A stretch of DNA of 64,000 nt from an uncultured virus (IMG/VR IMGVR_UViG_3300033066_000839) (IMGVR_UViG_3300033066_000839); one strand, 5' to 3'. Numbered from the stretch's first letter, positions 37,492 to 58,667 are shown. Translations and numbers: made by a program. Notes: a model not told the origin generated them from the letters alone.

Positions 37492-38139
37492 ATGCTTATA
37501 AACGAGCTTGTTCAAGGTAACGCCAATAGAGAGGAGTTATTATTGTTGCAGTCGGAAAGCTATTTAGACCAGTGCTTTACCGAGTTAACGCATTATTTGT
37601 TCCCGCCTAATGATTCAGAAACTACGAAAGCAGAGCTGAATGAATTAGTAGGCATGACAGAAGAGTTATTTCAGGACCAGAAGAGCACAAAACGCTTTAT
37701 GAATTATGATACCTCTTTAGGTGTGATAATGGTTAAATACCTTATGAGACGCGGTATAGAGCAGAAGGAAGCAGAGCCGCTGGTATCTGCGATGTTACGT
37801 GATATAGACCCGCTTATAGGTAAGCTCAAATTTTACTTTCAACGCCCGCGACCTAATGTGTTGGCGCATTACATGAGATTGAAGCTGATACCTTTCTTTT
37901 CTTTAACAGGTAGCAGCCCCAGTTATCCTAGCGGTCATGCCGTGCAAGCAAAATTCTTTGCCGAAATTATCGGTAATAAATATCCTAAGCTATATAAAGA
38001 TGTGCACGCATTCGCAGATGATGTATGTATGTCAAGGCTATTCATGGGTGTACATTATCAAAGCGATATTGACTACGCATCACTGGTAGTAGACCATGCA
38101 ATGAAAGTACAGGAGCTAAAATTAAAATACCAGATATGA
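37492..38139 (+). CDS. PAP2/vanadium-haloperoxidase-family phosphatase
   Basis: KFYFQRPRP, SYPSGHA, SRLFMGVHYQSD. Confidence 0.85.
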   Translation: MLINELVQGNANREELLLLQSESYLDQCFTELTHYLFPPNDSETTKAELNELVGMTEELFQDQKSTKRFMNYDTSLGVIMVKYLMRRGIEQKEAEPLVSAMLRDIDPLIGKLKFYFQRPRPNVLAHYMRLKLIPFFSLTGSSPSYPSGHAVQAKFFAEIIGNKYPKLYKDVHAFADDVCMSRLFMGVHYQSDIDYASLVVDHAMKVQELKLKYQI

Positions 38140-39253: not shown

Positions 39254-39694
39254 ATGCCAAAAGTTAACCCAACAGACTTATTTTCGGAAATAGCCTTTAC
39301 CGTAGAGGCTCTAGGAGTTGACGGAACTATTAACGTCTTGAAAAGAGCCCGTTCTGAAAGCCTGACTTTCACAGATAAAAAGGTGAATTTCCTATGTGGA
39401 TTAGTGCAAGAACGATTTAAAACATCGGCACAGGATATAATCGTTAGCAAATCAAAAGACGGTAATAGGCTAAATGCTCTTAAATTTATATGTTATTACC
39501 TGAAGGTGTCTTTTAAAATACCAGTAAAACAAATAGCTGTAATCATTAGCAGAGATACATCGCTTGTTCGCAGGTATTGTATTGAAATGAACACTATAAA
39601 AACAACAAAGCCTAATCATGGACTGCAAAGACATTTTCAGGCTTTCGATATAGCGATAACCGAATTTCAGATAAACAGTAAAAAAGGTAAATAA
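39254..39694 (+). CDS. DNA-binding protein with DnaA-C-terminal-like HTH
   Basis: C-terminal KQIAVIISRDTSLVRRY; TATATTTG promoter at 39230-39237. Confidence 0.5.
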   Translation: MPKVNPTDLFSEIAFTVEALGVDGTINVLKRARSESLTFTDKKVNFLCGLVQERFKTSAQDIIVSKSKDGNRLNALKFICYYLKVSFKIPVKQIAVIISRDTSLVRRYCIEMNTIKTTKPNHGLQRHFQAFDIAITEFQINSKKGK

Positions 39695-40653
39695 TGCCAG
39701 AATATACAGAACCAGAAGAAAAAGGAGGAGACTTTAACCCTCTTAATGACAGAGTAAATGAGAAGCCTTACTCTAGACTTAATGTAAAGACCAGCGCGGA
39801 TTCTTTAAATAGACCTATTCAAGAGCCATTCTTTACACCTCCGCCAATGAATGAAAATGTCACAGGGGAGAAAAGCACATCGTCTGGTTCTGGCGGTAGT
39901 AAATCAGGACCTAATCCAGCGGATAGCTTTAATCCGCAAATGAATGATATTCCTGCTGGAGAGAAAGCAAAGGCTAGTGAGCATGTAGCCGCTATGATTA
40001 TGCAAGGCTATGAGTTTGTAAACCAGCTTGCTAACAAAGGTCTGATGTTTAGCGAGAAGCGCCTGATGAAATTGCAGCAGTCTGGTGAAATAGACTTGGC
40101 TAATACTGCTATTCCGTATGATATGGAGGGCAATTTAATGCCAGCATCGGAATACATACAGACATATAACGAGCAGCAGCAAGATGCATTTAAAGTTAGC
40201 GATGAGTTTAAGGCGGAAGTTACGCCAGTCCTTACCCGAGTTTTGCAAAAGCGTGGCGTAGGTATGACCGATGAGCAATTCCTTATGTTTATGTTCGGTA
40301 AAGACATAGCTATCAAAGGTGTTCAATTTGTTGCCATACGCTCACAAATGAATCAGATTATAGCATTGATGAAGGAGTCTCATGCAAGAGGTGCTACAGC
40401 TCCGCCGCCACCAGCCCCGCAACCCACTTATGCTGCTCCCGATAATCGAGAGCCAGAATACGAGGAGGAGGAAGAGATTATAGAAGTTCATCATGTTCCA
40501 TTCGCAGAGGAAACGGCTAATGATACTGTTGAACGAATGACTAATCCTGATGGCTATGCGCAGAAGCAACAAAGGGTAGTAAAGGTAAAGCCAAAAAACA
40601 AAGGTGGCAGACCTAAGAAAGCCAGTAAAAAAGCAGTAGCAAAACCAGTATAG
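39694..40653 (+). CDS. Hypothetical protein upstream of the packaging ATPase
   Basis: Long ORF with TAATG coupling. Confidence 0.65.
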   Translation: MPEYTEPEEKGGDFNPLNDRVNEKPYSRLNVKTSADSLNRPIQEPFFTPPPMNENVTGEKSTSSGSGGSKSGPNPADSFNPQMNDIPAGEKAKASEHVAAMIMQGYEFVNQLANKGLMFSEKRLMKLQQSGEIDLANTAIPYDMEGNLMPASEYIQTYNEQQQDAFKVSDEFKAEVTPVLTRVLQKRGVGMTDEQFLMFMFGKDIAIKGVQFVAIRSQMNQIIALMKESHARGATAPPPPAPQPTYAAPDNREPEYEEEEEIIEVHHVPFAEETANDTVERMTNPDGYAQKQQRVVKVKPKNKGGRPKKASKKAVAKPV

Positions 40654-40658
40654 TAATC

Positions 40659-41516
40659 ATGGCAAGGGAGTGTAAAGTTATAGTCGCCGTAGGTAAAAAG
40701 GGCGTAGGTAAAACTGTAGCTACGATAGAAATGATATATCAGTATGTTACTGGTAATATGGCTAAAGGCGTACCCCCGCGTAAAGCATTGATATTTGATG
40801 TTAATGATGAGTTTGGCTCATTCTGGTTTCATGGTGCGACACATTCTATACCATCACTAGCCATTAAAGACATACCGTTATTCAGCGTGCACCCTAAAAT
40901 AGAAGTACGTAGAATAAGACCTTTTTGGGATGACGGCAGAAAGATGAGTATTGATGATATGGCGCAGGTGCTAGGCATCATACTGGATAATTACCGTAAT
41001 GGTTTATTGCTTGTAGAAGATATTAACAAGTATTCGAGTGATACACCTAAAAAAGATTTAGTGTCTGCCCTTGCCACAGTGCGCCACATAGGTATAGACC
41101 TTATTGCACACTATCAAAGCGTTGGTAGACCTGCCAATCCAAAGCTATTAGGTAACATATCATTCATACGGATGCACAAAACGAATGATAGTGTAGCGCG
41201 TCATAAAAATAAATTTGAAGACAGGACAGAGATACTAATGATTGGTGAGGCTATTGTAGCTAATAGATATAATGGAGGCGATAAACGGTATTACTTGTAT
41301 GTTGATATTGACGAGAGTAAAATACTTAGCGCTAAGGGCAACTTCACTGATGAGGAAGTAAATGCAGCCATAGAAGATTATATCAGTAAGAACCACAACA
41401 ATCTTGTAAAGCCACTGCTTAATAAATACGATTTAGTGAATAATCAAAAGATTTATACCCCTGTTACCGCCATAGAACAGGTGCGTAAAGAACTGAAGGA
41501 AAAGTATTTCCAATAA
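40659..41516 (+). CDS. Genome packaging ATPase, FtsK-HerA superfamily (P9/A32-like)
   Basis: Walker A GKKGVGKT at N-terminus, Walker B LLLVED, RH-x-Q signature RHIGIDLIAHYQ; about 285 aa; no nuclease domain. Confidence 0.8.
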   Translation: MARECKVIVAVGKKGVGKTVATIEMIYQYVTGNMAKGVPPRKALIFDVNDEFGSFWFHGATHSIPSLAIKDIPLFSVHPKIEVRRIRPFWDDGRKMSIDDMAQVLGIILDNYRNGLLLVEDINKYSSDTPKKDLVSALATVRHIGIDLIAHYQSVGRPANPKLLGNISFIRMHKTNDSVARHKNKFEDRTEILMIGEAIVANRYNGGDKRYYLYVDIDESKILSAKGNFTDEEVNAAIEDYISKNHNNLVKPLLNKYDLVNNQKIYTPVTAIEQVRKELKEKYFQ

Positions 41517-41614
41517 TCATTCCATTCTAACCCGTCAAATAAGGCTTTCAGCCGAATTAAAGGAGTATCTATTGATATTCCTTTTTTTTTCGTGAGTATC
41601 ATATTGCTAATACT

Positions 41615-41645
41615 TTGATTTGAACGATTTATATATCTAAGTTTG
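41615..41645 (+). promoter_or_regulatory. Promoter of the capsid operon
   Basis: TTTG elements upstream of TAAGTTTG (41638-41645). Confidence 0.6.
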
Positions 41646-41692
41646 TTATCGTAATACTATCTGAATAGAATTACGCTTAAAAACTAACAATT

Positions 41693-41824
41693 ATGTTTAG
41701 TGCAGAAAATATTAAAAAACTCGTAGGTCAAGTATTAATAGTAGCGGTAGGTGCGCTTATTGCTATGAAAGTGAATGAGAGAATGGGTATGGCTAAAATT
41801 GCTCCCCCTAAAAAAGAAGCATAA
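41693..41824 (+). CDS. 43-aa membrane protein (not in ORF track)
   Basis: MFSAENIKKLVGQVLIVAVGALIAMKVNERMGMAKIAPPKKEA; lies between ATPase and capsid candidate. Confidence 0.7.
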   Translation: MFSAENIKKLVGQVLIVAVGALIAMKVNERMGMAKIAPPKKEA

Positions 41825-41855
41825 CAACTTTTTATAACGAAAAAAAACGACTATC

Positions 41856-42593
41856 ATGTCACATATTAAGAAATACTTACAAAACAACCTGAATTTCGCG
41901 AATGAGTCATTCGCAAACGCGGACGGTTTCATTGATGACGACTTGCAGTTTACTGCGGGTGAAGATTTCATGAATGCTGGTGGTGGTGAGCAAGGAATGG
42001 GTTATAGCCCAGCTCCGACATCACAGCCGTACATCATAACTGTATCAAACGTGTCTGCCGTTGCGGTAGCTAACTTTGACGTTCTGGGTGCGTACCAATA
42101 CCTGCAAAATACAGGCTTCACTTCTGGTTCACTGTCTATCAGTGGTGTTACAATCAGCTCTGCTATCAGTAACATTACATACCAAGAGTTCCTGTATCAA
42201 TCAATGAACTCACCTTTCTCTGTAGGTCTTACTTACATCGAAAGCGTATCTGGTTCAACTTCACAGGTATCTCAAACCATCACAGTGAACACTCGTGATG
42301 CGAACGGTAACCAAGCGTTGAAAACGCTCGTGCCAACCATTGACCCATACCAGCAACAATCTGGTATCATAGCCATGAAGCAAGGCTATCGTATAGACGG
42401 TTTCACAAAACTGACTATCGCAAGCGTTCTTGCATCGGCTGTGTTCCGTCTTCACTTCTACCCTGCTGACAACATCAATATTGCTCGCGGTCTTGCATCT
42501 CGTCCAGTATCTCGTCAGTACGGCAACCCGAACATTGTTCGTAGTTCCGTTCAGGTTATCGGTGGCGACACAGTGAAAGCACGCTTAGGCTAG
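41856..42593 (+). CDS. Candidate major capsid protein (beta-rich, single jelly-roll sized)
   Basis: Follows packaging ATPase; own promoter and terminator; codons biased to AAC/TTC/ATC/GGT; beta-strand-like pattern; paralogue at 56898. Confidence 0.65.
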   Translation: MSHIKKYLQNNLNFANESFANADGFIDDDLQFTAGEDFMNAGGGEQGMGYSPAPTSQPYIITVSNVSAVAVANFDVLGAYQYLQNTGFTSGSLSISGVTISSAISNITYQEFLYQSMNSPFSVGLTYIESVSGSTSQVSQTITVNTRDANGNQALKTLVPTIDPYQQQSGIIAMKQGYRIDGFTKLTIASVLASAVFRLHFYPADNINIARGLASRPVSRQYGNPNIVRSSVQVIGGDTVKARLG

Positions 42594-42614
42594 AATAAGC
42601 CAATCCGAATAATT

Positions 42615-42657
42615 AAAGGGGGTTAGGTCGAAATGCAGATTTCCCTAACCCCTTTTT
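42615..42657 (+). terminator. Terminator after the capsid candidate
   Basis: aggggg-ttagg...cctaa-cccct followed by a T-run. Confidence 0.7.
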
Positions 42658-42672
42658 CAATATCCAGCAAAC

Positions 42673-43107
42673 ATGAATGTATATCAGTATATAGCGACAA
42701 ACAATCCGTCATTCGCAAAGAGTATTTGCAATCAGTACGGATATAGGACCGTAAATATCAGAAGTAATGCAGACTTAGCTGTATGCCTTGCTAAACTGGT
42801 AAATGCGGAGGGTGAGCCAGCATTCAAAGATATTATGAATGGTCATCCAGATAAAGATGTGATACTGGAGCTGTATGCTGCCAAGCCAGTGGAAACGCAT
42901 AGCAGTGCTGACGGTACAAGAGATGGCGGCGGTTATGGGTGCATGAATGGCTGTGGGTGCAGAAGTTGTCAACAAAGGCAAATGCATCATTATATGAATG
43001 CTGACGGCAGCGGTGCGAGAGAAAGCTCGGCTTCAAGCCTAACAAGCGTAAGTATTATTGCAGCAGCTATGATACTTGCAGTAGCAGTACTTACAAATAA
43101 CAAATAG
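42673..43107 (+). CDS. Putative virion membrane protein
   Basis: C-terminal TM; YMNADG motif; CxxGCGCxxC. Confidence 0.7.
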   Translation: MNVYQYIATNNPSFAKSICNQYGYRTVNIRSNADLAVCLAKLVNAEGEPAFKDIMNGHPDKDVILELYAAKPVETHSSADGTRDGGGYGCMNGCGCRSCQQRQMHHYMNADGSGARESSASSLTSVSIIAAAMILAVAVLTNNK

Positions 43108-43111
43108 ATTT

Positions 43112-43684
43112 ATGCCACAGTTTGATACACAACAATTAATAGACTACGCTCGCAGCGCGATTGCTAAAGCCGTTGTAAATGACCCTGAAGGGGTTATGAA
43201 TATACTCAAACGTAACGGTGTTGAATTACCTAAAGGCTTATCTGAAAATGAGTTGTATGCCGCAGTAATGACTGGTATGCGTGTGAGTCTTGCATTTAGG
43301 ACTGATATGGTTAATTACCTTAAATCATCTCCTTATGCAAACTACATAGAAGACTCTTACGGCTCAGCAGATGGTACGTCTCCAGACGGAGCGCCAACGG
43401 GTTCAACGGTTAAACGTGCACTTACACCAGAACGTGTAGGCAGCTATCTTGACGCTGCTGCCAATCTATTAGTATCTGCTTTGGGCTCAAAAATGCGTAA
43501 AGAAGGTGAGGAGAGAGCTATTACATATGAGATAGCACAAAAAGACAGGCTTACAGCCGAAGGTCAGGCGAAAGCCCCGATTGCTGTAGGTCAGAAAAAA
43601 ATACTTGTACCCGTACTTATCGGTGTAAGCGCATTGCTGGTGGCTGGTGTAGTATGGTATATGGTTAAAAAGGGTAAGAAATAA
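43112..43684 (+). CDS. Putative virion membrane protein
   Basis: C-terminal TM followed by KKGKK; YGSADG. Confidence 0.7.
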   Translation: MPQFDTQQLIDYARSAIAKAVVNDPEGVMNILKRNGVELPKGLSENELYAAVMTGMRVSLAFRTDMVNYLKSSPYANYIEDSYGSADGTSPDGAPTGSTVKRALTPERVGSYLDAAANLLVSALGSKMRKEGEERAITYEIAQKDRLTAEGQAKAPIAVGQKKILVPVLIGVSALLVAGVVWYMVKKGKK

Positions 43685-43687
43685 CTA

Positions 43688-43906
43688 ATGGCAACAGGTA
43701 AGGACATACTTGAAAAGGTTAAATCCATGAAAGACATGGACACCACTACTGGTATAACTAAAAGAGGTGTGTTTATATCTGGTGCAATAGGTGCTGGTGT
43801 TGGTGTGGCTATTGGATATAGCAGAAAGTATAACCTTTTGATGAGTGCCTTTATTGGTGCTGCCATATTCGGGTTAACGGCAAATTACTTTATCAATAAA
43901 AAATAA
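43688..43906 (+). CDS. Two-TM small membrane protein
   Basis: Gly-rich TM hairpin. Confidence 0.7.
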   Translation: MATGKDILEKVKSMKDMDTTTGITKRGVFISGAIGAGVGVAIGYSRKYNLLMSAFIGAAIFGLTANYFINKK

Positions 43907-43907
43907 C

Positions 43908-44081
43908 ATGAGCGATTTATTTGATAAGAGCAACATTACAAAAACACTTGTGGCAGCGGGCGCACTGGTAGGCATTATATATGGGATGAGAACCCATAAG
44001 AGCCTATTTATTACGGGCGCTGCGGCAGTTGGATTGGGTATTGTAGGCGGGCTTATCGGAGATGCGGTCACTAAATCATAA
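43908..44081 (+). CDS. Two-TM 57-aa membrane protein (not in ORF track)
   Basis: MSDLFDKSNITKTLVAAGALVGIIYGMRTHKSLFITGAAAVGLGIVGG... Confidence 0.7.
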   Translation: MSDLFDKSNITKTLVAAGALVGIIYGMRTHKSLFITGAAAVGLGIVGGLIGDAVTKS

Positions 44082-44083
44082 TA

Positions 44084-44341
44084 ATGAAAAAACCACTTTT
44101 TGGAATGATATTATTTAGCGGTGTTATTATAGGCGCTGCTATATTGATTTATCGTAATATCCGAAAGACACCAAGAAACAACGATGATGACAGCAACTTT
44201 AGTAATGCAACTGGCAGGGCTGGTCTAACGAGCAAGCCTAAAAGATATAATGTGATGACGACAAGTGAAAGGATGCATATTAACAGTTCGGCATCAATGG
44301 GCATGTTTAAAAGAGGTGTATGCCCTCCTCAATGCGATTAA
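44084..44341 (+). CDS. Putative virion membrane protein
   Basis: N-terminal TM; FSNATG. Confidence 0.65.
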   Translation: MKKPLFGMILFSGVIIGAAILIYRNIRKTPRNNDDDSNFSNATGRAGLTSKPKRYNVMTTSERMHINSSASMGMFKRGVCPPQCD

Positions 44342-44368
44342 ATTTGTAACCATTTTAAAACTCAATAT

Positions 44369-44491
44369 ATGAGCAAGACACAAAAAAACCTTTTAATTGT
44401 TGCTGGTTTGGCAGTAGTAGCGTATTACGCATATACTCAATACCAGAAGAAAAACAACTCTAACGCTGCTGGATTTATCAGAGAGCACTAG
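44369..44491 (+). CDS. 40-aa membrane peptide (not in ORF track; paralogue of 44528)
   Basis: MSKTQKNLLIVAGLAVVAYYAYTQYQKKNNSNAAGFIREH. Confidence 0.7.
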   Translation: MSKTQKNLLIVAGLAVVAYYAYTQYQKKNNSNAAGFIREH

Positions 44492-44527
44492 AATTATTGT
44501 ATTTCATAAATCTTTAAAAAAGTAAAC

Positions 44528-44722
44528 ATGACAAAAATGCAAAAAAACCTAGCAATAGGTGTCGGTTTGGTAGTAATTGCTTACGTAGCATATAACCAAG
44601 TGAAGAAAAACCAAGCTAAGAAAGCGATTGCGGCAGCAGCATCTACTGGTACTCCTGTAGCAACGAAAGACAAGTTTGGCGGAAACACTGGCAGCGGTTT
44701 CTGGAGTAATATTTTCGGGTAG
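44528..44722 (+). CDS. Putative virion membrane protein
   Basis: MTKMQKNLAIGVGLVVIAYVAY. Confidence 0.7.
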   Translation: MTKMQKNLAIGVGLVVIAYVAYNQVKKNQAKKAIAAAASTGTPVATKDKFGGNTGSGFWSNIFG

Positions 44723-44736
44723 TAAAAACAATAATA

Positions 44737-45051
44737 ATGACCGCTGAAAAAACAGCTAACCAGATGTGGCGTGCTAGTGGAACAACACTGCCGTTTAAAG
44801 AATGGTTATCGCGAGAGAAAACAAAATACAGCAATGCTATCGGTCAGCCGATAGATACGCCGTTTATAGGGAATAAGCCTCTTACAGACAGTATTCAAAA
44901 GACATTGGATAGTATGCGTGGTGAGCTCCCAGTGAAAACAGAAATAACTAACAAGACATTATTGGGAATCAATAAAACTGTTGTTATAGTCGGCGTTCTT
45001 ATAGTTGTAGCCGCTGTCGGGTATAAAATTTATACAGCACGTAAAAAATAG
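44737..45051 (+). CDS. Putative virion membrane protein
   Basis: C-terminal TM; YSNAIG. Confidence 0.7.
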   Translation: MTAEKTANQMWRASGTTLPFKEWLSREKTKYSNAIGQPIDTPFIGNKPLTDSIQKTLDSMRGELPVKTEITNKTLLGINKTVVIVGVLIVVAAVGYKIYTARKK

Positions 45052-45053
45052 GT

Positions 45054-45359
45054 ATGAGTACTAGAAATTTATTATTGATTGGTTCTGCTGCGTGGATTGC
45101 TTACATATTGTATAGTAATATGCAACGTGATAAGCATATCAATGACCTGAAAAGACAGGTTGCTGATACACAAAGTCAGTTAAAAGCCGCTATTGAGGGT
45201 AGGGGTCAGGCATTTACTTTGCCTCCGAAGTATGTAAATAACGGAGACTTCAGTAAAGATGCCGCTATATTCCCAGCGGGGATTAATCAGGACTACAATA
45301 CCTGTAAAGGGGTAACGGTAGCGCCGCCACCAGTTAAAGTAACATCGCTTAGAGGATAA
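45054..45359 (+). CDS. Putative virion membrane protein
   Basis: N-terminal TM plus short coiled coil. Confidence 0.65.
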   Translation: MSTRNLLLIGSAAWIAYILYSNMQRDKHINDLKRQVADTQSQLKAAIEGRGQAFTLPPKYVNNGDFSKDAAIFPAGINQDYNTCKGVTVAPPPVKVTSLRG

Positions 45360-45362
45360 GAT

Positions 45363-46157
45363 ATGAATATCAGAATACCAACTAACTATGAAGAGTTTAC
45401 GCTAGCCGTAACGGTTAAATCAGCAACGGGGCGACCAGAGTGTATACACATTACGCTCAAGGACAACACGATGCCTAATACCGTATTTACGGACAGGTAC
45501 AAGACTATCATGGATGAGTTTACATTCTATGTTCGTATGCCAGTGAGCGGTAAGAGCGCGGAATTGATAATTTATAACGAGCGCACGGGGAATATACCCT
45601 CTAAGAGTGACAGCACTTTTGAGGTGGTTAATATATCCAAGCAGCCGTTACAAAAGAAAATGGACGTAGTGGACTTCAACAATCCAGTAATACGCTCCTT
45701 TATCAATTTTTCGACACGTTTCTGCTTTAATGCTGGCGTTCTTACCAGTGGTGAGTATGTATCTGATGATGGTAAGTTTAAGATAAACTATACACCTACT
45801 ATCCTTAGTAAACGTACCAATACCGAAATGAATACCCCAGCTCGTATAAGCAAGACGACTGGTATTATTCAGATAGCACAAAAGAAATTCGTGCCTATGA
45901 CTATACCAATGCGTATGGCTATACTGATGCATGAGTTCAGTCACTATTATGTCAATGATGATATTAATAATGAGATTGAAGCGGACCTTAACGGGTTATT
46001 GATATACTTGGGTCTTGGTTATCCGAGAATTGAGGCATATCAGGCATTTTTAGGAACATTTGTCGGTACGCCTACACTTGAAAATAAAAAGCGTGCTGAT
46101 TTGATAGACAGGTTTATAAGGGATTATGAAAAAAACAATTTAGTATTCAATGGTTAG
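45363..46157 (+). CDS. Zinc metalloprotease (HExxH), candidate maturation protease
   Basis: AILMHEFSH...EIEAD. Confidence 0.75.
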   Translation: MNIRIPTNYEEFTLAVTVKSATGRPECIHITLKDNTMPNTVFTDRYKTIMDEFTFYVRMPVSGKSAELIIYNERTGNIPSKSDSTFEVVNISKQPLQKKMDVVDFNNPVIRSFINFSTRFCFNAGVLTSGEYVSDDGKFKINYTPTILSKRTNTEMNTPARISKTTGIIQIAQKKFVPMTIPMRMAILMHEFSHYYVNDDINNEIEADLNGLLIYLGLGYPRIEAYQAFLGTFVGTPTLENKKRADLIDRFIRDYEKNNLVFNG

Positions 46158-46410
46158 TAAAACACACGGCGGTTTATACGTTGCGGTAGGGCTCATATTC
46201 ATGGGTGCTGGCGCGTATTACCTATGGATGCATAGTAAACAGCACTACGCGGCTGTGATTGCTAAAGGCGGACACGGCGCTTACAGTGACCTTGTGTCTC
46301 TTGATAAAAAGTATCTCAAAGAATACGCTAAAGCAATAAAAAATAATTCAGATACTTTCATGGTAGACGGGAAAGTATTTGATGGTAAAACAGGGAGGGC
46401 AAAACGATGA
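46150..46410 (+). CDS. Putative virion membrane protein
   Basis: N-terminal TM. Confidence 0.65.
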   Translation: MVSKTHGGLYVAVGLIFMGAGAYYLWMHSKQHYAAVIAKGGHGAYSDLVSLDKKYLKEYAKAIKNNSDTFMVDGKVFDGKTGRAKR

Positions 46411-46925
46411 AAGATAAAGCATTCAAAGTATATTCTGAATTGCCAGCATGGGCAAAGGGTGTGACAGCTATTGTTGTGGTAGCTGGTGTCGCCTTTATAG
46501 GATATAAACTATATCGTAAGTTCAACCCTTCCGAAAAAGAAAAGAAAAATAAGCAGCTATTAAATGATATTGACAATGAGATAGCCGCTTTCAGAAATAG
46601 AGGCATGAAGCCATCATATAGTAATGCCGCTTATGATTTAATGGCTGGGCAAATATATGAGGGCATGAGGCAGTGCGTTGGTGATGATTACACCTCCGTG
46701 CAAAACAACATGAAAAAAATGAAGAATGACCTTGATGTAGCTATGCTTATCAAGTCATACGGCATACGTCAGCTTTATTGTTACGGGATAAACGCTGGAG
46801 ACCCTAACGACTTATTCAGTGCTGTTCAGGCTGAATTAGGTAATGAGTGGGCAGGTCTTACTGCTTACAGGTTAAAAGACATTAACAGCGATTGGAAGAA
46901 AAAAGGTATTAGTTATACTTTATAA
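46407..46925 (+). CDS. Putative virion membrane protein with helical domain
   Basis: N-terminal TM. Confidence 0.65.
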   Translation: MKDKAFKVYSELPAWAKGVTAIVVVAGVAFIGYKLYRKFNPSEKEKKNKQLLNDIDNEIAAFRNRGMKPSYSNAAYDLMAGQIYEGMRQCVGDDYTSVQNNMKKMKNDLDVAMLIKSYGIRQLYCYGINAGDPNDLFSAVQAELGNEWAGLTAYRLKDINSDWKKKGISYTL

Positions 46926-46936
46926 AATATTTTGAC

Positions 46937-47515
46937 ATGGATTGCAACGAAAATGGCATGTTCTATGGTGTAAATACACCACTTACAGGAGAGGATTTTA
47001 CAAGCGCAGAAAGCGACTTTGCAAATGCTTCTGGGTTCTTAGGCATATTCCCTAACAAAGAAGACAGGGAGGCTAAGAAACAACTAAAGCAACGCCGCTC
47101 GGCTATGGAAGCTGAAAATAGGCGTGTGGCTTCTGTTGCGACTGAAGACGATGTTGTAAAACCATTAGGTTACAGAAAAATGTCTGTTGATGAAATCGTA
47201 GCACCTACCGTAGAGAAAGTAAAGCCTATATCCGTAACAAAAAACCTTGCGTATGCTAAAAAGGTTATGAACTCCAAGAACTTTTTGGATGACATACTCG
47301 ATAGCACTATCGTAGGTGGTGCAACCGCTGCTGCTACTATGGCAGATGCAGAAGCGGCAAAGCAGGAATCGGCGGCAAAAAAGCAACTGGGTATGATGCC
47401 AGATGAAGGCATGAAAGATAATACCATCTGGTGGATTATAGGAGGTGGTTTAGTAGCGGTTATTGCCGTTATAGCTATCGTTGCTTCTAAATCCAACAAA
47501 GGTGTAAAAAAATAA
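46937..47515 (+). CDS. Putative virion membrane protein
   Basis: MFYG leader, FANASG, C-terminal TM. Confidence 0.7.
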   Translation: MDCNENGMFYGVNTPLTGEDFTSAESDFANASGFLGIFPNKEDREAKKQLKQRRSAMEAENRRVASVATEDDVVKPLGYRKMSVDEIVAPTVEKVKPISVTKNLAYAKKVMNSKNFLDDILDSTIVGGATAAATMADAEAAKQESAAKKQLGMMPDEGMKDNTIWWIIGGGLVAVIAVIAIVASKSNKGVKK

Positions 47516-47518
47516 CTC

Positions 47519-47971
47519 ATGGACGTATTTGAAAGGGACATATTTTACGGCACTAAGCTGCACCCCAGCAAGGCGGAATACGCTAATGCTGATGGTTCTT
47601 CGATAACTACGGCTGGAGCGGAAATACAAAGTTCTGGTCTAAGAAAGACATTAAAGAACCTTAGCGACCAAGAGCAGGAAAAAAGAGCTAAAGCGCAGGG
47701 TGGTACTGCCCGTAGTAAAATATTGGGTGCTGGCGACCAAGTATCTGCAACACAAACGCAGACAATAGCTCCCGTTTCAGAAACGCCCGCACCTGCTCCC
47801 GTTCCAACTTCACAAGGACCGTTCTTAGGTACATTTCAGTTTCCACAACAGGGATATGATGATGGTACGCAGCAGTCTGGTGGTGGCGTGAGTAATCAAA
47901 CATTGATATTTATTGCCGTAGGCATTGCTGCTGTCGGTATGTTTTTATATTTAAGAAAACCAAAATCATAA
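47519..47971 (+). CDS. Putative virion membrane protein (MDVFE..FYGTKLHP family)
   Basis: Shared N-terminus, YANADG, C-terminal TM. Confidence 0.75.
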   Translation: MDVFERDIFYGTKLHPSKAEYANADGSSITTAGAEIQSSGLRKTLKNLSDQEQEKRAKAQGGTARSKILGAGDQVSATQTQTIAPVSETPAPAPVPTSQGPFLGTFQFPQQGYDDGTQQSGGGVSNQTLIFIAVGIAAVGMFLYLRKPKS

Positions 47972-47975
47972 GGTG

Positions 47976-48530
47976 ATGGACGTATTTGAAAAAGGAAATT
48001 TTTACGGTACAAAACTACACCCGTCCAACTCCGCACAGGGAATACCTGATGCTGATGACTTTAGTAATTTTTTAGGGTTGGGTAATCCTGAAAAACGCGC
48101 TGCCCGTAAGCAGGCGAAAGCGGAAAAGAAACTTGAAAAAGCCGAACATGCTAACCCAAAGAAAGCAGCAAGGCTAAGAGCAGCAGCAGGTCGTAAGCTC
48201 GGTAAGGTGGAGAAAATAAACCAGCGTTATGGTCTTAACCCTCCGTCATCAAGCGTTGATGTAGGAACTCAAAATGAGAACGACTCGGTATTGAATACTA
48301 CCAATCCAATAGCCACCAGTCAGGCGGCAACTACGCAGGTAGCTGCAACCGCTGCAACTATAACTACCGAGCAACCGCAATATGCACCCATGTATGAAGA
48401 TACAAATTCTGGTAAAGCTCCTGTAGATTATACCAGAATGGCTATATATGGAGGCATTGGCTTGGCTACTATATTCGTGGTTGGTGTATTGCTCTCCAGA
48501 CAGGGAGAATTAAAGATGGCTAAAAATTAA
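47976..48530 (+). CDS. Putative virion membrane protein (MDVFE..FYGTKLHP family)
   Basis: Shared N-terminus, FSNFLG, basic segment, C-terminal TM. Confidence 0.75.
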   Translation: MDVFEKGNFYGTKLHPSNSAQGIPDADDFSNFLGLGNPEKRAARKQAKAEKKLEKAEHANPKKAARLRAAAGRKLGKVEKINQRYGLNPPSSSVDVGTQNENDSVLNTTNPIATSQAATTQVAATAATITTEQPQYAPMYEDTNSGKAPVDYTRMAIYGGIGLATIFVVGVLLSRQGELKMAKN

Positions 48531-48542
48531 AAATTCGTACTC

Positions 48543-49127
48543 ATGGACGTTTTTGAACAAGGAATATTTTACGGTACTAAGTTGCATCCCAACAAAGCAG
48601 CATATGCTATGGGGGATGAATATGCTAATGCTACTGGCGGTAAAAAGGCGCAGGGTAATTATGAGAGCGAATACCGTGCTAGGTACACATCAAAGAGTAC
48701 CATACCAGCTATGCGCAGCACCATTCAGGCTTTACAGGGTGATTTGGAGCGTGTTCGTGGTAAAAAGTGCCCTAAAGAGACACTTGGTAAAGCAATATTA
48801 ACAGGCGGTATCGCTAATCTGCCAGCAAGGAAATGCCATAGAGAGGTAGAAGCGCGTGCTAATGCTATATCCAATGTTATCAATGAATACCAAGACAGGC
48901 TTCAGGGTATGATTGATGATGAGAAAGCAAAAGCAGCGGCAAAAATTGAAGAGGATAAAAATAAAGCTATGCCGCTTGATACGCCCGTAACGGATATGAG
49001 TATGCAACCTCAAACGGAAAGCATGATACCGTCTGGCAGCGGTATGAATACTAAAACATTATTGCTTATAGGTGGTGGTGTTGCGGGGTTATTGATAATT
49101 GTAATGTTATTAAAAAAGCAAGGATAA
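48543..49127 (+). CDS. Putative virion membrane protein (MDVFE..FYGTKLHP family)
   Basis: Shared N-terminus, YANATG, C-terminal TM. Confidence 0.75.
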   Translation: MDVFEQGIFYGTKLHPNKAAYAMGDEYANATGGKKAQGNYESEYRARYTSKSTIPAMRSTIQALQGDLERVRGKKCPKETLGKAILTGGIANLPARKCHREVEARANAISNVINEYQDRLQGMIDDEKAKAAAKIEEDKNKAMPLDTPVTDMSMQPQTESMIPSGSGMNTKTLLLIGGGVAGLLIIVMLLKKQG

Positions 49128-49137
49128 AAATTAGTAT

Positions 49138-49728
49138 ATGGCTATTGACATGATTGAAGATAATGAATTGTCAGCGCTTGCGCCGATGCGTCAAAGCATT
49201 TTCCAGAATGACAATGTACGCCGTATGCCTAATCGCACGGGATTTGATACTTTGCAGCAAACGGAGTTTAATAACTTTTTGGGCATAGCCGAAGGTAATC
49301 GAAAAAAAGGGAAAGCCATTAAATCAAAAGACCCCGTTAGGGATTTCCCGTTTAATGAAAAAATGACTTGTGCCCAATTATCGGATATAGGAGAAAAGGT
49401 AGATGCTGAATTAAACGCTACTACACTTGAAAGTGGCAGCGGCTCTGCGTTTGTAAAGAAGTCATATGCTGAATATCTCGGTAAACTGAAGCGTCATAAA
49501 AATAATATTGATGCGCTTATGCGTGCAAAAAAATGTGACGAACAAACATCTTCGGCAGAGACACAAAGGGTAATAACCGAAAACGCCAAAGCGATACAGG
49601 CGGCACAGGGAGCAGCGGCTCTTCCGACACAGGGGAGCATGTTTGGCGGTAAGTCAAATTCTACTATCTTAGTAGTTGCGGGGCTTGGTGTAGCGGGGTT
49701 GCTAACATATATGATTATGAGAAAATAA
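49138..49728 (+). CDS. Putative virion membrane protein
   Basis: FNNFLG, C-terminal TM. Confidence 0.7.
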   Translation: MAIDMIEDNELSALAPMRQSIFQNDNVRRMPNRTGFDTLQQTEFNNFLGIAEGNRKKGKAIKSKDPVRDFPFNEKMTCAQLSDIGEKVDAELNATTLESGSGSAFVKKSYAEYLGKLKRHKNNIDALMRAKKCDEQTSSAETQRVITENAKAIQAAQGAAALPTQGSMFGGKSNSTILVVAGLGVAGLLTYMIMRK

Positions 49729-49735
49729 TTTACCA

Positions 49736-50317
49736 GTGATAAAAGCGATAAAAGTAACCAACAGCGAAAAAATAAAAACTATCGTCAGGCAGACATTTGA
49801 GGGAGATGATATTCTCTTTTTAAAGTATCACCTGATAAACAATGACAAGGCGCGTGCCATAGAAAAGACCACACAGCAAATACTTGACAGCCTTAAAGCG
49901 GAAAAAAAGTATGAGTTCTATGTTATGGTGGATGATGCCGACAATGAGATAGGATATTTTAGCGGTATGGTATACGGAGGGTTAAAAGTAGCCACTTCAA
50001 TACTTCATAGCTTTGGATTACAGGTAGCATATAGAAAAAAGGAAAATACTATAAGGTTATTTGAATTAGCAAAAGAAACACTCGGCGGCGCTTCTATGAC
50101 ATGTTTGCTGTTCCAGAAGAATACAAGAGCCATAAAGTCATGTTTTTTGTATGGGTTTGAGGAAATGGGAGCTGGAATACTTGATGAAAACAAAGAACCT
50201 TATACCATTTTAAAATTAAAGATAGATGCCAGTAACGATAATAGGTGTGGTTGTAGGCATTGTGACAACAGCGGTAAGTGCAAATCAGCAATCAAAGAAC
50301 AGGCAAGCGGCAGTTAG
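49736..50317 (+). CDS. GNAT-fold acetyltransferase-like protein
   Basis: EIGYF...FGLQVAYRK...KNTRAIKSCFLYGFE. Confidence 0.55.
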   Translation: MIKAIKVTNSEKIKTIVRQTFEGDDILFLKYHLINNDKARAIEKTTQQILDSLKAEKKYEFYVMVDDADNEIGYFSGMVYGGLKVATSILHSFGLQVAYRKKENTIRLFELAKETLGGASMTCLLFQKNTRAIKSCFLYGFEEMGAGILDENKEPYTILKLKIDASNDNRCGCRHCDNSGKCKSAIKEQASGS

Positions 50318-50576
50318 TGCTGCCAATGCACAGATAGTTGAAATGCGCGAAGCTCAAAAAAAAGAGCTTAAAGTTGGGAAACGCATAGCACGCAATCAGG
50401 ATTTGTCTAAGCTCATGGCGGAGGTAGCGAAAGGATATACCCAATCGGTACTCTCTGAAGAGCAGCAGGCTAAATTTGAAAAACTAAAACGGCAAAACCA
50501 GTTACTAATGGTAGCAGGGATTGCTCTGGCAGGTGTAAGCGTAGTTTATATGATAACGCATAATAAAAAGAATTAG
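50226..50576 (+). CDS. Putative virion membrane protein
   Basis: Hydrophobic N- and C-termini, coiled coil. Confidence 0.65.
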   Translation: MPVTIIGVVVGIVTTAVSANQQSKNRQAAVSAANAQIVEMREAQKKELKVGKRIARNQDLSKLMAEVAKGYTQSVLSEEQQAKFEKLKRQNQLLMVAGIALAGVSVVYMITHNKKN

Positions 50577-50579
50577 TAT

Positions 50580-50960
50580 ATGTTTGTTGATGATGACGAC
50601 TATATATATAAAAATGCCAGCGGCTTCGGTCAGTCTGGTGGCTATGATGCTATAGCAACTGTGGTATCGGGCGTGGCTGGTGGTTTATTGATGAATCAGC
50701 AGGCTAAAAAACAGCGTCAGGCGGAAATGGATATAGCGCAGGCGCAATTAGCGCTTCAAAAAGAACTTGGTCTGGCGGCTATTAAGTCACAGGCAGAAGT
50801 TGCCAAGCAACGTAATTTAACGGATTCCCTTACGTCACAAAGGACCGTAGTGGTATCGGGTGGTGGCAGCAATAGCGGCAAAACGATTATATATGTATTG
50901 GTCGGTGTTGCCATGCTGGGTGCTATTGGATTTTCAGTATATAAAATGAAGAAAAAATAA
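50580..50960 (+). CDS. Putative virion membrane protein
   Basis: YKNASG, C-terminal TM followed by KKK. Confidence 0.7.
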   Translation: MFVDDDDYIYKNASGFGQSGGYDAIATVVSGVAGGLLMNQQAKKQRQAEMDIAQAQLALQKELGLAAIKSQAEVAKQRNLTDSLTSQRTVVVSGGGSNSGKTIIYVLVGVAMLGAIGFSVYKMKKK

Positions 50961-50961
50961 A

Positions 50962-51447
50962 ATGAAGAAAGTACTATTATTTGGTGCGGGTTTTGGGCTA
51001 TTGGGCTTTGCTATATACAGATATGTCAAGGTTCAGCAACAGCTATTAAGTAAATTCAGCTACCGTATAGTAGGCTTTAACTTTGCCAAGTTTACCCTTG
51101 AAGAGATAACGGTTAGCCTGCGTATCAAGTTTATAAGCGATGCGGACCTAGAAGCCAAGATAGAGAGTGTATTCCTCAATATGTATGTGGATGACAGCCC
51201 AGTAGGATATATAAGCAATGACAATCCTTTTGTCGTTCCCGCTCATGGCAGCAGCTATATAGACCTTACCTTCAGCTTTAGCCCTAAACTTATACTAAGG
51301 AACGTGGTTAACGTGTCATTGGCTGGCTTTGGTTCAAAGGATATAAAATTCAACGTGGACGGATATGCAAAATTGCGTAGCGGGTGGATAAGCACAACAT
51401 TACCTGTAAAATATACAACTACGCTAAAGCAATATTTAGCTAAATAA
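50962..51447 (+). CDS. Membrane protein with LEA_2/WHy-like beta-sandwich
   Basis: N-terminal TM; VGYI...FVVPAHGSSYIDLTFSF. Confidence 0.6.
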   Translation: MKKVLLFGAGFGLLGFAIYRYVKVQQQLLSKFSYRIVGFNFAKFTLEEITVSLRIKFISDADLEAKIESVFLNMYVDDSPVGYISNDNPFVVPAHGSSYIDLTFSFSPKLILRNVVNVSLAGFGSKDIKFNVDGYAKLRSGWISTTLPVKYTTTLKQYLAK

Positions 51448-51474
51448 TTGTAATTTTATAAAAACGAGATAACA

Positions 51475-51873
51475 ATGCTAGATTCTATTTTAAAAGAATT
51501 TGAGAAAATAACATTTAAAGCATGTGAAAGACATGCAAGTTCTTTACAAGATGTTGTGACTAATGTGCAACTGGTACTTAGTTTGAACAGTGAAGCAGAA
51601 GTTGAATACACACTTTGCAGGAATTATAATCCTGACAAAAAAATCTCATTTTTAGAGATTCTTGGTGTTCGTATAGACTTTAAAGGGTATAGTATGATAG
51701 TGCCCCCCTTCATTCAAAAAACACTGTTGAGGTTAGCGCAGGATTATGGAGTAGATGAAAAGGAGTTGTTTGTAATGATAATTCCAACGGATGACATTAA
51801 GAGAACGAATGTAATTTGGGCATATGTAAAAGGGAAGCCTAAAGAACAAATAAAGATTGAAGACTTTTTTTAA
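51475..51873 (+). CDS. Hypothetical protein
   Basis: Co-oriented ORF. Confidence 0.6.
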   Translation: MLDSILKEFEKITFKACERHASSLQDVVTNVQLVLSLNSEAEVEYTLCRNYNPDKKISFLEILGVRIDFKGYSMIVPPFIQKTLLRLAQDYGVDEKELFVMIIPTDDIKRTNVIWAYVKGKPKEQIKIEDFF

Positions 51874-51883
51874 TTAATAATAT

Positions 51884-52153
51884 ATGCAAGTACATACAAG
51901 GACGATAACAGCAGGTAATAGTTTAGTTATTACACAAGCCCTCAATGTATTACAGATGAGTGTGCTCGTTAATGCTTCTAGTTCTGGAACAGTAACAGGC
52001 GATTTAACTATTGGGGGCGTTGCCTCTGCGGCTATTCCGCTTGATGTACAACAGGGGTTTTCGATTACCTCACCGCTTCCAAATAATCCGATATTTGGGA
52101 TAACGGTAGCATGTACTACGGGAACAATAGATGTAATGTTAGCAGTACAATAA
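51884..52153 (+). CDS. Small all-beta structural protein (penton/spike-base candidate)
   Basis: T/V/I/S-rich 89 aa directly before the fibre gene. Confidence 0.45.
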   Translation: MQVHTRTITAGNSLVITQALNVLQMSVLVNASSSGTVTGDLTIGGVASAAIPLDVQQGFSITSPLPNNPIFGITVACTTGTIDVMLAVQ

Positions 52154-52159
52154 TATACT

Positions 52160-53854
52160 ATGGCAGGATTTTTAGGCAGTAATGGTTTTTCATTCTTTTC
52201 TAACGGTGGTCCTCAAATACCATCGGGTATTATCACAGGTAGTGTTAGTCCGTCTTTTGTGCCATATGCTAATGGTGCGAACACGCTGGCTAATACCGCA
52301 ATGACTTGGGATGCCGTTAATAATAGAATCGGTATCAATAACGCTACGCCAGCACAGGCGCTTGATGTTACAGGTAGCCTTATCGTAAGCGCCAATATAT
52401 ATACTTCTCTTACGCAGGGTAGTGTTGCCTTTATTGATGGCTCTGGGTTGCTTACTCAAGATAATGCTAACTTTTTTTGGAATAATACCAGCAAACGTCT
52501 CGGAATAGGCACTGCCTTACCTACTTTCAAATTAGATATACATGGTACTGGAATATCGCTCGGCGTAAATGGCACAACTACCAATGATGCCTATATGGTA
52601 TTTCAAAATGCAGGCACATCTAAATGGAGGCTCGGAAATACATATAGTGCTGCCGCTAACTATTTTAGCATATACGATACTACAAATTCCCTAGACAGGC
52701 TTACTATACTTAGCAGCGGGTTTGTGGGTATAGGTACAAGCACCCCAAGCGTATTGTTACATGTAAATAGTGCCGCATCACCAGCTTTCAGGCTGGTAGA
52801 TACTACGCAAGGCGCTAATAAGGTACTTATATCCGATGCTAATGGTAATGCCAGTTGGAGTGCATTATCTGGCTTAAACATACCTACGGGTACTGGCGCT
52901 GCTGGGCAGTCTACATTCTGGACTGGCACAAATACGTTATCTGGTGATAATGCGTATTTCTGGGATAATACGAATAAAAGACTGGGTATAGGCACGGCAA
53001 CTCCGAGCGTATCTCTTCATATCAACAGTGCGTCATCGCCAGCATTCAGGCTGGTAGACGGTACGCAGGGTGCTGGTAAGCTCTTGCAATGCGATGCCAA
53101 TGGTAACGCTGCGTGGGCGGCGCTAAGTTCTATATTTGGCAGTGGTACTACAAACTACGTACCGCGATTTACGGCTGCTACTACTATCGGTAACAGTACG
53201 ATGCAGGATGACGGTTCTAATCTTGGCGTGGCGACAGTACCGAATGTAGCCTATACTATGGACGTAGGTGGCACGGTACGTATACAGCAAAGTGTTACTA
53301 TGGTTGCCTCTGGAAACTATTATGTAGGTATAGGCATTGCTCCAAGCTCAAACGGCAGGTTGAATGTGTATGCCAACTCTATAACGGGTATATACATTAC
53401 TGGTAACTCTACGGCACAAAAGGGTATAGACTTAAACGGTACAAAACTTGCAATGGCAACCTATTCTGGTAATGTTTCATATCTGCAAACAGATGTTGGT
53501 GGTGGTAATATGGATATAAAATCACTAGGTAATATTGCTTTATATCCAGACATTCTAACATCAGCATCCGCATTTGCTAATATCGCCTTGTATGGTAGTG
53601 GTGGCGCTGGATATTATTCTTCTCTAGGCGTTGGTGCTGTAGTAGCTGCTGGGGATTTGGTTGCGGGTAATGCCCCTAATGCTGGCGCTCAAGGTAGCGG
53701 TAGTTTATATACCGTAGACCCCGCGACTGGCGCTAAAAATACCAACGGATGGCAAATGGGTAATGTTACCGCTGGAGCAGTAGTCCTTGATACTACAAGA
53801 TATGTACGTATTGACATTGGTAACGCACTAATAAAATTTCTAATAGCTCCTTAA
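52160..53854 (+). CDS. Spike/fibre receptor-binding protein
   Basis: Repeated (R/V)xGIGTxxPxxxLxV and FWxNTxKRLG units; internal ~50-aa duplication; G/T/N-rich. Confidence 0.75.
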   Translation: MAGFLGSNGFSFFSNGGPQIPSGIITGSVSPSFVPYANGANTLANTAMTWDAVNNRIGINNATPAQALDVTGSLIVSANIYTSLTQGSVAFIDGSGLLTQDNANFFWNNTSKRLGIGTALPTFKLDIHGTGISLGVNGTTTNDAYMVFQNAGTSKWRLGNTYSAAANYFSIYDTTNSLDRLTILSSGFVGIGTSTPSVLLHVNSAASPAFRLVDTTQGANKVLISDANGNASWSALSGLNIPTGTGAAGQSTFWTGTNTLSGDNAYFWDNTNKRLGIGTATPSVSLHINSASSPAFRLVDGTQGAGKLLQCDANGNAAWAALSSIFGSGTTNYVPRFTAATTIGNSTMQDDGSNLGVATVPNVAYTMDVGGTVRIQQSVTMVASGNYYVGIGIAPSSNGRLNVYANSITGIYITGNSTAQKGIDLNGTKLAMATYSGNVSYLQTDVGGGNMDIKSLGNIALYPDILTSASAFANIALYGSGGAGYYSSLGVGAVVAAGDLVAGNAPNAGAQGSGSLYTVDPATGAKNTNGWQMGNVTAGAVVLDTTRYVRIDIGNALIKFLIAP

Positions 53855-58117: not shown

Positions 58118-58331
58118 GGGCTTCCAATACTTTTTTGAAACATAGATAGCCTACGTATATAGAGCCTACAAAAGCCATACATACAAAGCCTATCGCCCCA
58201 TAGTATATGGAATCGTTGTATTGTATCAGGGTGATAAGCATCATAAGCAATATGCCGAAAGCTATGAAGGATATTAACCCTATCACGAAAAATCCTGTTT
58301 TTACAAGCAGTTCTTTAAGTTCGTTTGACAT
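58101..58331 (-). CDS. Two-TM membrane protein
   Basis: Start revised to MSNELKE. Confidence 0.6.
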   Translation of the reverse strand: MSNELKELLVKTGFFVIGLISFIAFGILLMMLITLIQYNDSIYYGAIGFVCMAFVGSIYVGYLCFKKVLEAPKKNQ

Positions 58332-58413
58332 CTTTATTTTTTTATGGGTTATTATTTTGTATGTTTGTGGTGTTGGCAGCCCCCGCATAGAATATGTAAC
58401 CTCCCAACATCAT

Positions 58414-58632: not shown

Positions 58633-58667
58633 AAGTTGTATATTTGTACCCCAACTGCGTCAACATA

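Follow-up and report, generated by a model that had tools for sequence, protein, structure and literature searches.

Maturation of virus particles by cleavage at a consensus site is established for T4, phiKZ-like phages, adenovirus and poxviruses. The T4 prohead protease gp21 is associated with L/I-x-E sites and capsid-targeting leaders, and phiKZ and SPN3US have prohead protease sites of their own; the adenovirus protease adenain (C5) recognises (M/I/L)-X-G-G|X and (M/I/L)-X-G-X|G; and in vaccinia the A-G|X sites of core proteins are cut by a cysteine protease, with G1, a metalloprotease of inverted motif (HxxEH), needed for morphogenesis. In the coat proteins of nodaviruses (N|A) and tetraviruses (N|F) the chain cuts itself at Asn. 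For tailless, membrane-containing phages, the selection of membrane proteins and the tie between membrane and shell are poorly understood, and we know of no shared peptide motif or protease described for the linkers P16/P30 of PRD1 or P3/P6 of PM2. Here a 64,000-nucleotide stretch of DNA from an uncultured virus (IMG/VR IMGVR_UViG_3300033066_000839; hereafter the window) was analysed, in which a short motif, [FY]-x-N-[AF]-x-G, recurs in a coat-protein candidate and nine small membrane proteins encoded at 41856-50960, around the gene of a conserved zincin-type metallopeptidase. We tentatively read this motif, at slightly less than an even chance, as a signal that the zincin recognises and that marks proteins throughout the particle for processing. 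Proteins are named below by the first nucleotide of their genes.

As with gp21, phiKZ and SPN3US, one virus-encoded protease gene lies within a structural module, and a short consensus is found on the coat candidate and many putative particle proteins, often after an N-terminal leader. T4 and phiKZ are tailed, with HK97-fold coats, serine proteases and proven cleavage, whereas the system described here has a jelly-roll candidate, membrane proteins and a zincin, with cleavage a prediction. Adenovirus has a particle of the jelly-roll lineage, to which the present virus may also belong, and likewise a consensus site on several precursor proteins; adenain, unlike the zincin 45363, is a cysteine protease of another fold that belongs to eukaryotic hosts and recognises a different motif. 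Adenain-like maturation had been proposed in an earlier reading of the window made from sequence alone (the sequence-only reading); the logic is the same, but because protease class and motif both differ the comparison is one of logic only. No homology of 45363 to the serine prohead proteases or to adenain C5 was found; it has a zincin signature, and the only protease-domain matches among the 50 fold matches listed are M48 peptidases. Vaccinia likewise combines a virus-encoded metalloprotease with a consensus site in core proteins, and differs in the inverted motif of G1, in the cysteine protease that acts at A-G|X and in being a eukaryotic virus. PRD1, PM2 and sphaerolipovirus-like viruses resemble the present virus in their many small membrane proteins and, as judged over the 64 kb window, in having no tailed-phage hallmark genes; the PRD1 and PM2 linkers are also small membrane proteins that face the coat lattice of a tailless particle with an inner membrane.

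In PMC4405056 and PMC6260650, tectiviruses and polintoviruses are described as sharing capsid proteins, an ATPase and a polymerase, and the maturation protease is placed in the eukaryotic branch, acquired from a transposon. A term search of PMC6356626, a 2019 review of membrane-containing phages, returned no vocabulary of proteolysis or processing. In the open-access full-text literature no paper was found on the virus group, the motif or the zincin, a result that depends on the search wording chosen.

A shared motif in the structural block

For comparison, 43 related loci were recovered from IMG/VR with the 41856 protein (43-68% identity, contigs up to 102 kb), and 67 viral loci and 10 contigs from metagenome-assembled genomes (MAGs) were recovered with the zincin alignment. 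Across the 43 loci the core genes are 39694 (in 40), a P-loop ATPase at 40659 (42), 41856 (43), 42673 (40), 44737 (37), 45363 (37; the six loci without it are short) and 37492 (38). The motif-bearing proteins and the zincin of the window are as follows, with residue numbers of the motif and positions in nucleotides (nt).

41856..42593, plus strand: jelly-roll coat-protein candidate of 245 amino acids (aa), from an AlphaFold2 (AF2) model and homologues
41910..41927, plus strand: coat motif copy 1, FANADG at residue 19; column conserved in relatives, N21 invariant in 27 sequences
41967..41984, plus strand: coat motif copy 2, FMNAGG at residue 38; relatives read F-F-[NGRS]-A-x-G
42673..43107, plus strand: core membrane protein (soluble N-domain, spacer, C-terminal membrane helix); YMNADG at residue 107 (nt 42991-43008)
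44084..44341, plus strand: small protein with an N-terminal membrane helix; FSNATG at residue 39 (nt 44198-44215)
44737..45051, plus strand: core tail-anchored protein with the weakest site; YSNAIG at residue 31 (nt 44827-44844)
45363..46157, plus strand: two-domain zincin; HEFSH (nt 45930-45944) and E-I-E-A-D (nt 45972-45986)
46937..47515, plus strand: tail-anchored protein; FANASG at residue 28 (nt 47018-47035)
47519..47971, plus strand: tail-anchored paralogue 1, N-terminus beginning MDVFE and containing FYGTKLHP; YANADG at residue 21 (nt 47579-47596)
47973..48530, plus strand: tail-anchored paralogue 2; FSNFLG at residue 30 (nt 48060-48077)
48543..49127, plus strand: tail-anchored paralogue 3; YANATG at residue 27 (nt 48621-48638)
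49138..49728, plus strand: tail-anchored protein; FNNFLG at residue 44 (nt 49267-49284)
50580..50960, plus strand: tail-anchored protein; YKNASG at residue 10, ten residues from the N-terminus (nt 50607-50624)

The eleven strict sites had been listed in the sequence-only reading; all were found, in frame, together with the looser variants it had reported in 43112, 44369 and 36119 and the HEFSH of 45363. Paralogue 2, which it had started at 47976, starts at 47973 here, the ATG lying one codon in. A six-frame scan of the whole window gave 14 matches to the strict pattern, the three extra ones being out of frame or containing a stop. The 121 proteins called in the window include 21 in 41856-50960, and the eleven sites fall in 10 of these 21 (2,976 aa), against none in the 100 others (16,361 aa). 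Per-protein shuffling of the block (20,000 shuffles) gave a mean of 0.14 sites and a maximum of 3. As a post-hoc control all patterns of the same shape were counted: N-A-x-G occurs in 9 of the 21 proteins, which no pattern reached in 500 shuffles, and Y-x-N-A-x-G in 5, a count matched by any pattern in 1 of the 500.

Sites were also scored with a log-odds matrix built from 79 independent contexts in relatives only, the window sites being left out. Ten block sites scored 9.7-22.1, above the best non-block site of the window (6.9); the YSNAIG of 44737 scored 4.3, within noise, and is a weak eleventh site. Acidic residues had been noticed before the motif, and this too was borne out: D or E stands at position -2 in 38 of 88 independent contexts, against a background of 11.5%. 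These results support the motif as a real, selected, block-wide signal.

Conservation of the motif in relatives

The motif holds up in relatives. Unique plus-strand open reading frames (ORFs) of 118 related loci (2,731 ORFs, 420,408 aa) contain 236 strict instances in 210 ORFs, where shuffled sequences gave 18.2 on average and 27 at most, and the minus strand of the same loci contains 2 instances against 5.2 expected. Enrichment, determined for each fixed position by leaving that one free, was 6.3x for F and 4.9x for Y at the aromatic position, 6.1x for N, 6.3x for A and 6.7x for G. At position 4 only apolar residues exceed background (A 6.3x, F 2.1x, M 1.8x). Position 5 favours D, S and T, with D commonest (56/216), S or T in 78/216 and G as common as T. 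The resulting consensus, [DE]-x-[FY]-x-N-[A>F,M]-x-G, has the character of a short linear signal on flexible segments.

Among 41 aligned sequences of the 42673 family, 40 retain the motif column, although the linker around it, before the membrane helix, is otherwise variable. Elsewhere the motif moves along orthologues; the site of 44737 lies in an insertion, and its orthologues have motif-like elements further on. One clade (L076 7480-7941 and its clade) favours N-F-T-G over N-A-x-G, sometimes twice in one small protein, and in the coat leader of this clade the Asn is lost (I-G-V-D-G and F-F-G-A-D-G). The most divergent relatives, with zincins 31-34% identical, have only looser forms such as W-S-N-D-G-G, H-S-N-A-D-G and M-F-G-A-D-G. 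The motif-bearing families include some without detectable similarity to one another.

The zincin of the block

An HExxH protease had been placed in the middle of the cluster by the sequence-only reading, and 45363 proved to be a conserved zincin-type metallopeptidase within the structural block. Its 37 homologues in the related loci all read HE[FY][SA]H. A profile search of 1.84 billion representatives recovered 795 family members at E <= 0.001, almost all of them some 260 aa in length; among the best 150 of these, HExxH is present in 150/150 and is followed within 5-14 residues by E-x-x-[AS]-D in 147/150. Residues conserved at >=90% in 143 aligned representatives include H190, E191, H194, N198, E204, A207, D208 and T158-P159-x-R161; E204, in the E-x-x-A-D element of the helix that follows HExxH, stands where M48 peptidases have the Glu that is their third zinc ligand.

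The AF2 model of 45363 (predicted local distance difference test (pLDDT) 89.4, predicted template modelling score (pTM) 0.88) consists of a beta-sandwich (residues 1-98) and a mixed helical metallopeptidase domain (108-258). Residues 112-259 were matched to BepA (Z 8.6, rmsd 4.2, 120 residues aligned), 3c37 (Z 6.7), Ste24p (Z 6.5) and ZMPSTE24 (Z 6.2), where Z values under about 8-13 can reflect an arrangement common in helical folds; among the 50 fold matches listed, these four M48 peptidases are the only ones that are not sandwiches. Foldseek of the model against the PDB gave beta-sandwich matches only, none at E <= 0.001. As a single protein, 45363 matched nothing in PHROGs or Pfam, and PDB sequence searches with the zincin profile and with its C-terminal 115 residues gave no match at E up to 10. 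Sub-threshold Pfam matches were all to zincins (among 28 family members, SprT-like in 10, M48 in 4 and M56 in 3), and the curated cut-off of Pfam M48 (PF01435) was reached by none of the 28, the best M48 E-value being 0.015.

45363 resembles the M48 peptidases (BepA, Ste24/ZMPSTE24, HtpX), the family of the best fold matches for residues 112-259, in combining HExxH with an E-x-E-A-D-x-x-G element, which is also present in M48 genes from three MAG genomes (L119-L122). It differs in the position of this element (E-I-E-A-D-L-N-G 9 residues after HExxH, against 58 in L119), in falling short of the Pfam model, in having no membrane helices and in its added N-terminal beta-sandwich. An hhalign comparison of the zincin alignment with only four M48 sequences gave a probability of 1.4% and E 0.036 over 51 columns, which cover just the stretch from E-x-E-A-D to the C-terminal part. 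From its conserved signature and modelled fold we read 45363 as a probably active, minimal M48-like gluzincin with an added beta-sandwich, and do not file it as a demonstrable Pfam M48 member. In most relatives the zincin gene is immediately preceded by that of 44737, whose N-terminal helix is conserved and which may anchor the enzyme to the membrane or act as its partner.

The coat candidate and its predicted contact with the zincin

In its AF2 model, 41856 has a helix (residues 3-20), a disordered leader (19-55, pLDDT under 50) and a beta core (about 59-204), and both motif copies fall in the disordered stretch between helix and core. The core is a single, not a double, jelly roll, with weak matches (Z 4.8-5.8) that include the capsid proteins of PBCV-1, PR772, phiCjT23, FLiP, PM2 and PRD1 (Z 4.8-5.7) among lectins and TNF-like folds; because the matches are weak and mixed in this way, 41856 is called only a probable coat protein. 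Foldseek of the model against the PDB and BFVD returned generic jelly-roll, TNF/C1q and collagen-tail matches only, and nothing was found in PHROGs or Pfam. The candidate has 2,162 homologues, and contigs of the virus group are 45-100 kb long. In the best 120 homologues, all of which are named 'hypothetical protein' in their sources, the motif occurs within the first 70 residues in 117 and twice in 82. Two tandem coat paralogues are present in one relative (L038 9276-10702), and in another (L014 6784-7437) an extra copy, diverged and without a strict motif, lies 3 kb upstream.

Zincin 45363 was co-folded with coat residues 1-60 and Zn in three runs, with controls. Scores of 0.70, 0.47 and 0.70 were obtained, against 0.28 for the best control; the mark used for such scores is reached by 116 of 157 solved complexes and by 2 of 215 mismatched pairs. 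At least 34% of contacts are common to the runs, and the partner pLDDT is at least 42. The confident interface comprises coat residues 2-23, that is, the helix and F19, A20, A22 and D23 of motif copy 1, and zincin residues 45-48, 56 and 222-249, which form an exosite. Protease-peptide models had been suggested by the sequence-only reading; the co-fold supports binding of the coat N-terminal leader to 45363 (0.70 vs 0.28) and places the contact at the exosite, giving no substrate pose.

Membrane proteins that carry the motif

A membrane helix is predicted from hydropathy in 14 of the 21 proteins of 41856-50960, and none of the motif bearers matched anything in PHROGs or Pfam. The three tandem paralogues at 47519-49127 have a common N-terminus (MDVFE, FYGTKLHP) before the motif and diverge after it, and 46937, which starts MFYG, is related to them at its N-terminus. 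The motif had been described as separating an N-terminal leader from the body. This arrangement was found in the coat candidate, 46937, 47519, 47973, 48543, 49138, 50580 and 44737; it fails in 42673, where the motif (residue 107 of 144) immediately precedes the membrane helix, and in 44084, where it follows the N-terminal membrane helix.

A census of the family comprised 220 unique motif proteins, classified with a permissive helix predictor that flags 52% of all ORFs. Tail-anchored proteins number 116/220; in these the motif is separated from a single C-terminal helix by a median of 50 residues, and the chain runs on for about 3-4 residues beyond the helix. Coat orthologues account for 46/220, proteins with the motif after a single N-terminal helix for 19/220, and a protein with several membrane helices for 1/220; in 38/220 no helix was found by this crude predictor. 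A C-terminal sorting signal of the sortase or exosortase type was considered and rejected, the motif standing about 50 residues or more from the membrane helix in most bearers.

Proposed processing and competing explanations

In the proposed mechanism the motif would label the coat protein at its N-terminal leader and many tail-anchored membrane proteins in their soluble parts. The virus-encoded zincin 45363 would read it and cut at or near it during particle assembly or maturation. Several observations argue for such processing: the core genes of the block include that of a catalytically intact enzyme, the motif is found in flexible segments and in precisely the proteins of the block, position 4 admits only apolar residues, as a zincin S1' pocket might, and the leader is predicted to bind the enzyme. 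If there is a cut, the Asn-[Ala/Phe/Met] bond would agree with the apolar S1' preference common among zincins. The sequence-only reading had proposed a virion-wide processing or docking signal plausibly cut by 45363; its signal and its conserved zincin stand, co-folding supports binding of the leader, and the predicted contact at an exosite in place of the zinc site does not bear out the cut itself. Cleavage at the motif by 45363 is plausible. The analysis establishes the motif, its enrichment and conservation, the signature and fold of the zincin and a controlled in-silico binding of the coat leader; action of the zincin on these proteins, a determining role of the motif and the position of a cut are proposed in addition.

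A number of points weigh against processing. The zinc-site residues H190, E191, H194 and E204 lie outside the co-fold interface, and the second motif copy was left unplaced; conservation at the interface does not exceed that elsewhere in the protein (0.40 vs 0.45 in 143 representatives), with R45 (82%), F233 (92%) and N241 (95%) standing out; and, because the interface helix is specific to the coat protein, the co-fold says nothing on the other bearers. Leader and core of the coat protein are equally well conserved. In some bearers no more than 5-10 residues precede the motif, and for these a terminal binding tag is at least as good an explanation as a site of cleavage. Basic residues directly follow the C-terminal helices of the tail-anchored proteins, which have no signal peptide, so by the positive-inside rule their long N-terminal parts would lie on the far side of the membrane, and the motifs may thus be in another compartment than a soluble protease. 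The zincin could instead serve in entry or on the host envelope. Several of these points suit an uncut docking or sorting tag that binds a common partner (for example the coat lattice on its inner side, the beta-sandwich of 45363 or some other assembly factor), recruits viral membrane proteins to the particle membrane and registers that membrane to the shell, with the zincin having another job or binding only. We regard this as a serious but somewhat unlikely alternative. More than half of the motif proteins (116/220) are built as heads on tethers, with the motif at a median of 50 residues before the C-terminal helix, some motifs stand at the extreme N-terminus, the place of the motif shifts between orthologues in the manner of binding motifs, the co-fold has the leader at an exosite and not in a substrate pose, and the coat leader is strongly conserved; the layout on tethers, the N-terminal motifs and the exosite pose fit docking at least as well as processing. 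Docking would, however, leave a catalytically intact zincin unexplained as a core gene of the block and needs the extra assumption that the coat protein bears the same tag as its supposed ligands, and the swap from A to F at position 4 is large for one binding pocket.

The invariant Asn might alternatively be modified, either glycosylated by a viral glycosyltransferase or joined in a covalent Asn-Lys cross-link, which we consider improbable. Asn is the best-kept residue, S or T at position 5 in 78/216 contexts gives N-A-S/T, and glycosyltransferases are encoded at 12544, 14930 and 18726; yet the second coat copy and divergent relatives have G, R or S in place of Asn, and a cross-linking partner is not evident. 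As a general reading, an N-glycosylation sequon was rejected, because with D commonest at position 5 and G as common as T most sites are not N-x-S/T. Self-cleavage at Asn with no protease involved is more improbable still: A or F follows the Asn as in the nodavirus and tetravirus sites, but there the reaction needs a folded catalytic surround in one capsid protein, with the scissile Asn in a folded coat near a catalytic acid, whereas the present sites lie in disordered or linker segments of ten unrelated proteins. That the motif arose by chance or paralogy and has no function has a negligible chance of being right. The bearers 47519, 47973 and 48543 are indeed paralogues with a common N-terminus, and the 44737 site is weak; against this, the shuffle, strand, frame, matrix and leave-one-out controls reject chance, and the bearers include families without detectable mutual similarity. 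Chance is refuted for the motif set as a whole and could still hold for single weak sites.

Genome context and virus type

Nearly all genes up to about 58.1 kb of the 64 kb window are on the plus strand; gene orientation and GC skew switch at about 58100, and the genes of 58101-63993 are on the minus strand. The DNA of the block gave no match to deposited phages. PHROG and Pfam scans of the window found phage-type accessory genes, methyltransferases, glycosyltransferases and lysins among them; terminase, portal, HK97-type coat and tail-tube families were absent from the proteins scanned (104 with PHROGs, 83 with Pfam), and the sole tail-labelled match was a weak PHROG 'tail fiber' match of 52160. 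These absences apply to the window, beyond which the genome may extend. Features outside the motif set are listed below.

12544, 14930 and 18726: glycosyltransferases (PHROG/Pfam scans)
23189-30914: DarB-like helicase/kinase giant (PHROG/Pfam scans)
34517, 35208 and 54790: lysins (PHROG/Pfam scans)
40659..41516, plus strand: P-loop ATPase, candidate genome-packaging ATPase, adjoining the coat gene

The region 23189-30914 encodes a 681-aa N6-methyltransferase (Eco57I-like) and, after it, a protein of 1,814 aa in which SNF2 helicase and zeta-toxin/AAA_33 kinase-like domains are combined; the PHROG families matched by the two proteins carry the label DarB-like antirestriction, and by these matches the region is probably an anti-restriction giant. 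A PAP2-superfamily lipid phosphatase (37492-38139), a core gene of the virus group in 38/43 loci, hints at lipid remodelling for a viral membrane.

The block as a whole (39694-53854) comprises the ATPase, the 245-aa protein 41856, about twenty small proteins and the genes 51884 and 52160. Tailless internal-membrane viruses of the PRD1, PM2 and sphaerolipovirus-like kind have an FtsK/HerA-type packaging ATPase beside the coat gene; for the P-loop ATPase at that place here no Pfam, PHROG or PDB sequence match was found (PDB: none at E up to 10); Atlas look-alike clusters have DUF87 or Zot in 11-20% of members, which serves as a lead only. Directly before it lies a 319-aa core protein (39694-40653, 40/43 loci) whose N-terminal segment is acidic and conserved and whose C-terminal tail is basic and G-R-P-rich; this protein may be a scaffold or DNA-associated. 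At the other end (51884-53854), an 89-aa beta-rich protein, with a homologue in the related locus L053, is followed by the 564-aa fibre-like repeat protein of the weak 'tail fiber' match; the two are a candidate vertex and spike pair.

The virus group is large and undescribed, and apparently tailless and membrane-containing, where the labels 'membrane virus' and 'capsid' rest on weak jelly-roll matches, hydropathy and the absence of tailed-phage families in the window. Its hosts are probably Bacteroidota, the lineages to which 5 of the 10 MAG contigs were binned. The rest are scattered, the bins of L044-L053 also including Chlamydiales, Alphaproteobacteria, Gammaproteobacteria, Ignavibacteria and Planktophila; these are probably mis-binned viral contigs, which makes host calls from bins unsafe.

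Significance

What is new is a virion-wide consensus signal together with a protease of the virion module, in a lineage and a protease class where such a system is undescribed. Possibly, though with some doubt, this is the first maturation-protease system in the prokaryotic lineage of jelly-roll, internal-membrane viruses, with a tag that serves both for sorting and for trimming after closure of the shell. A minimal M48-like zincin would then recognise one tag on the coat leader and on a dozen tail-anchored membrane proteins, and the tag would sort viral membrane proteins into the particle and permit their trimming once the shell has closed. If so, consensus-site maturation would have arisen independently in a tailless lineage, before or apart from the adenain-type proteases of eukaryotic viruses, and would help to show how viruses with an internal membrane select their membrane proteins. 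A very large uncultured group offers a conserved enzyme and a conserved peptide tag that can be tested together: cleavage, if true, would add a new protease class to virus maturation, and binding without cleavage would make the tag a new sorting motif.

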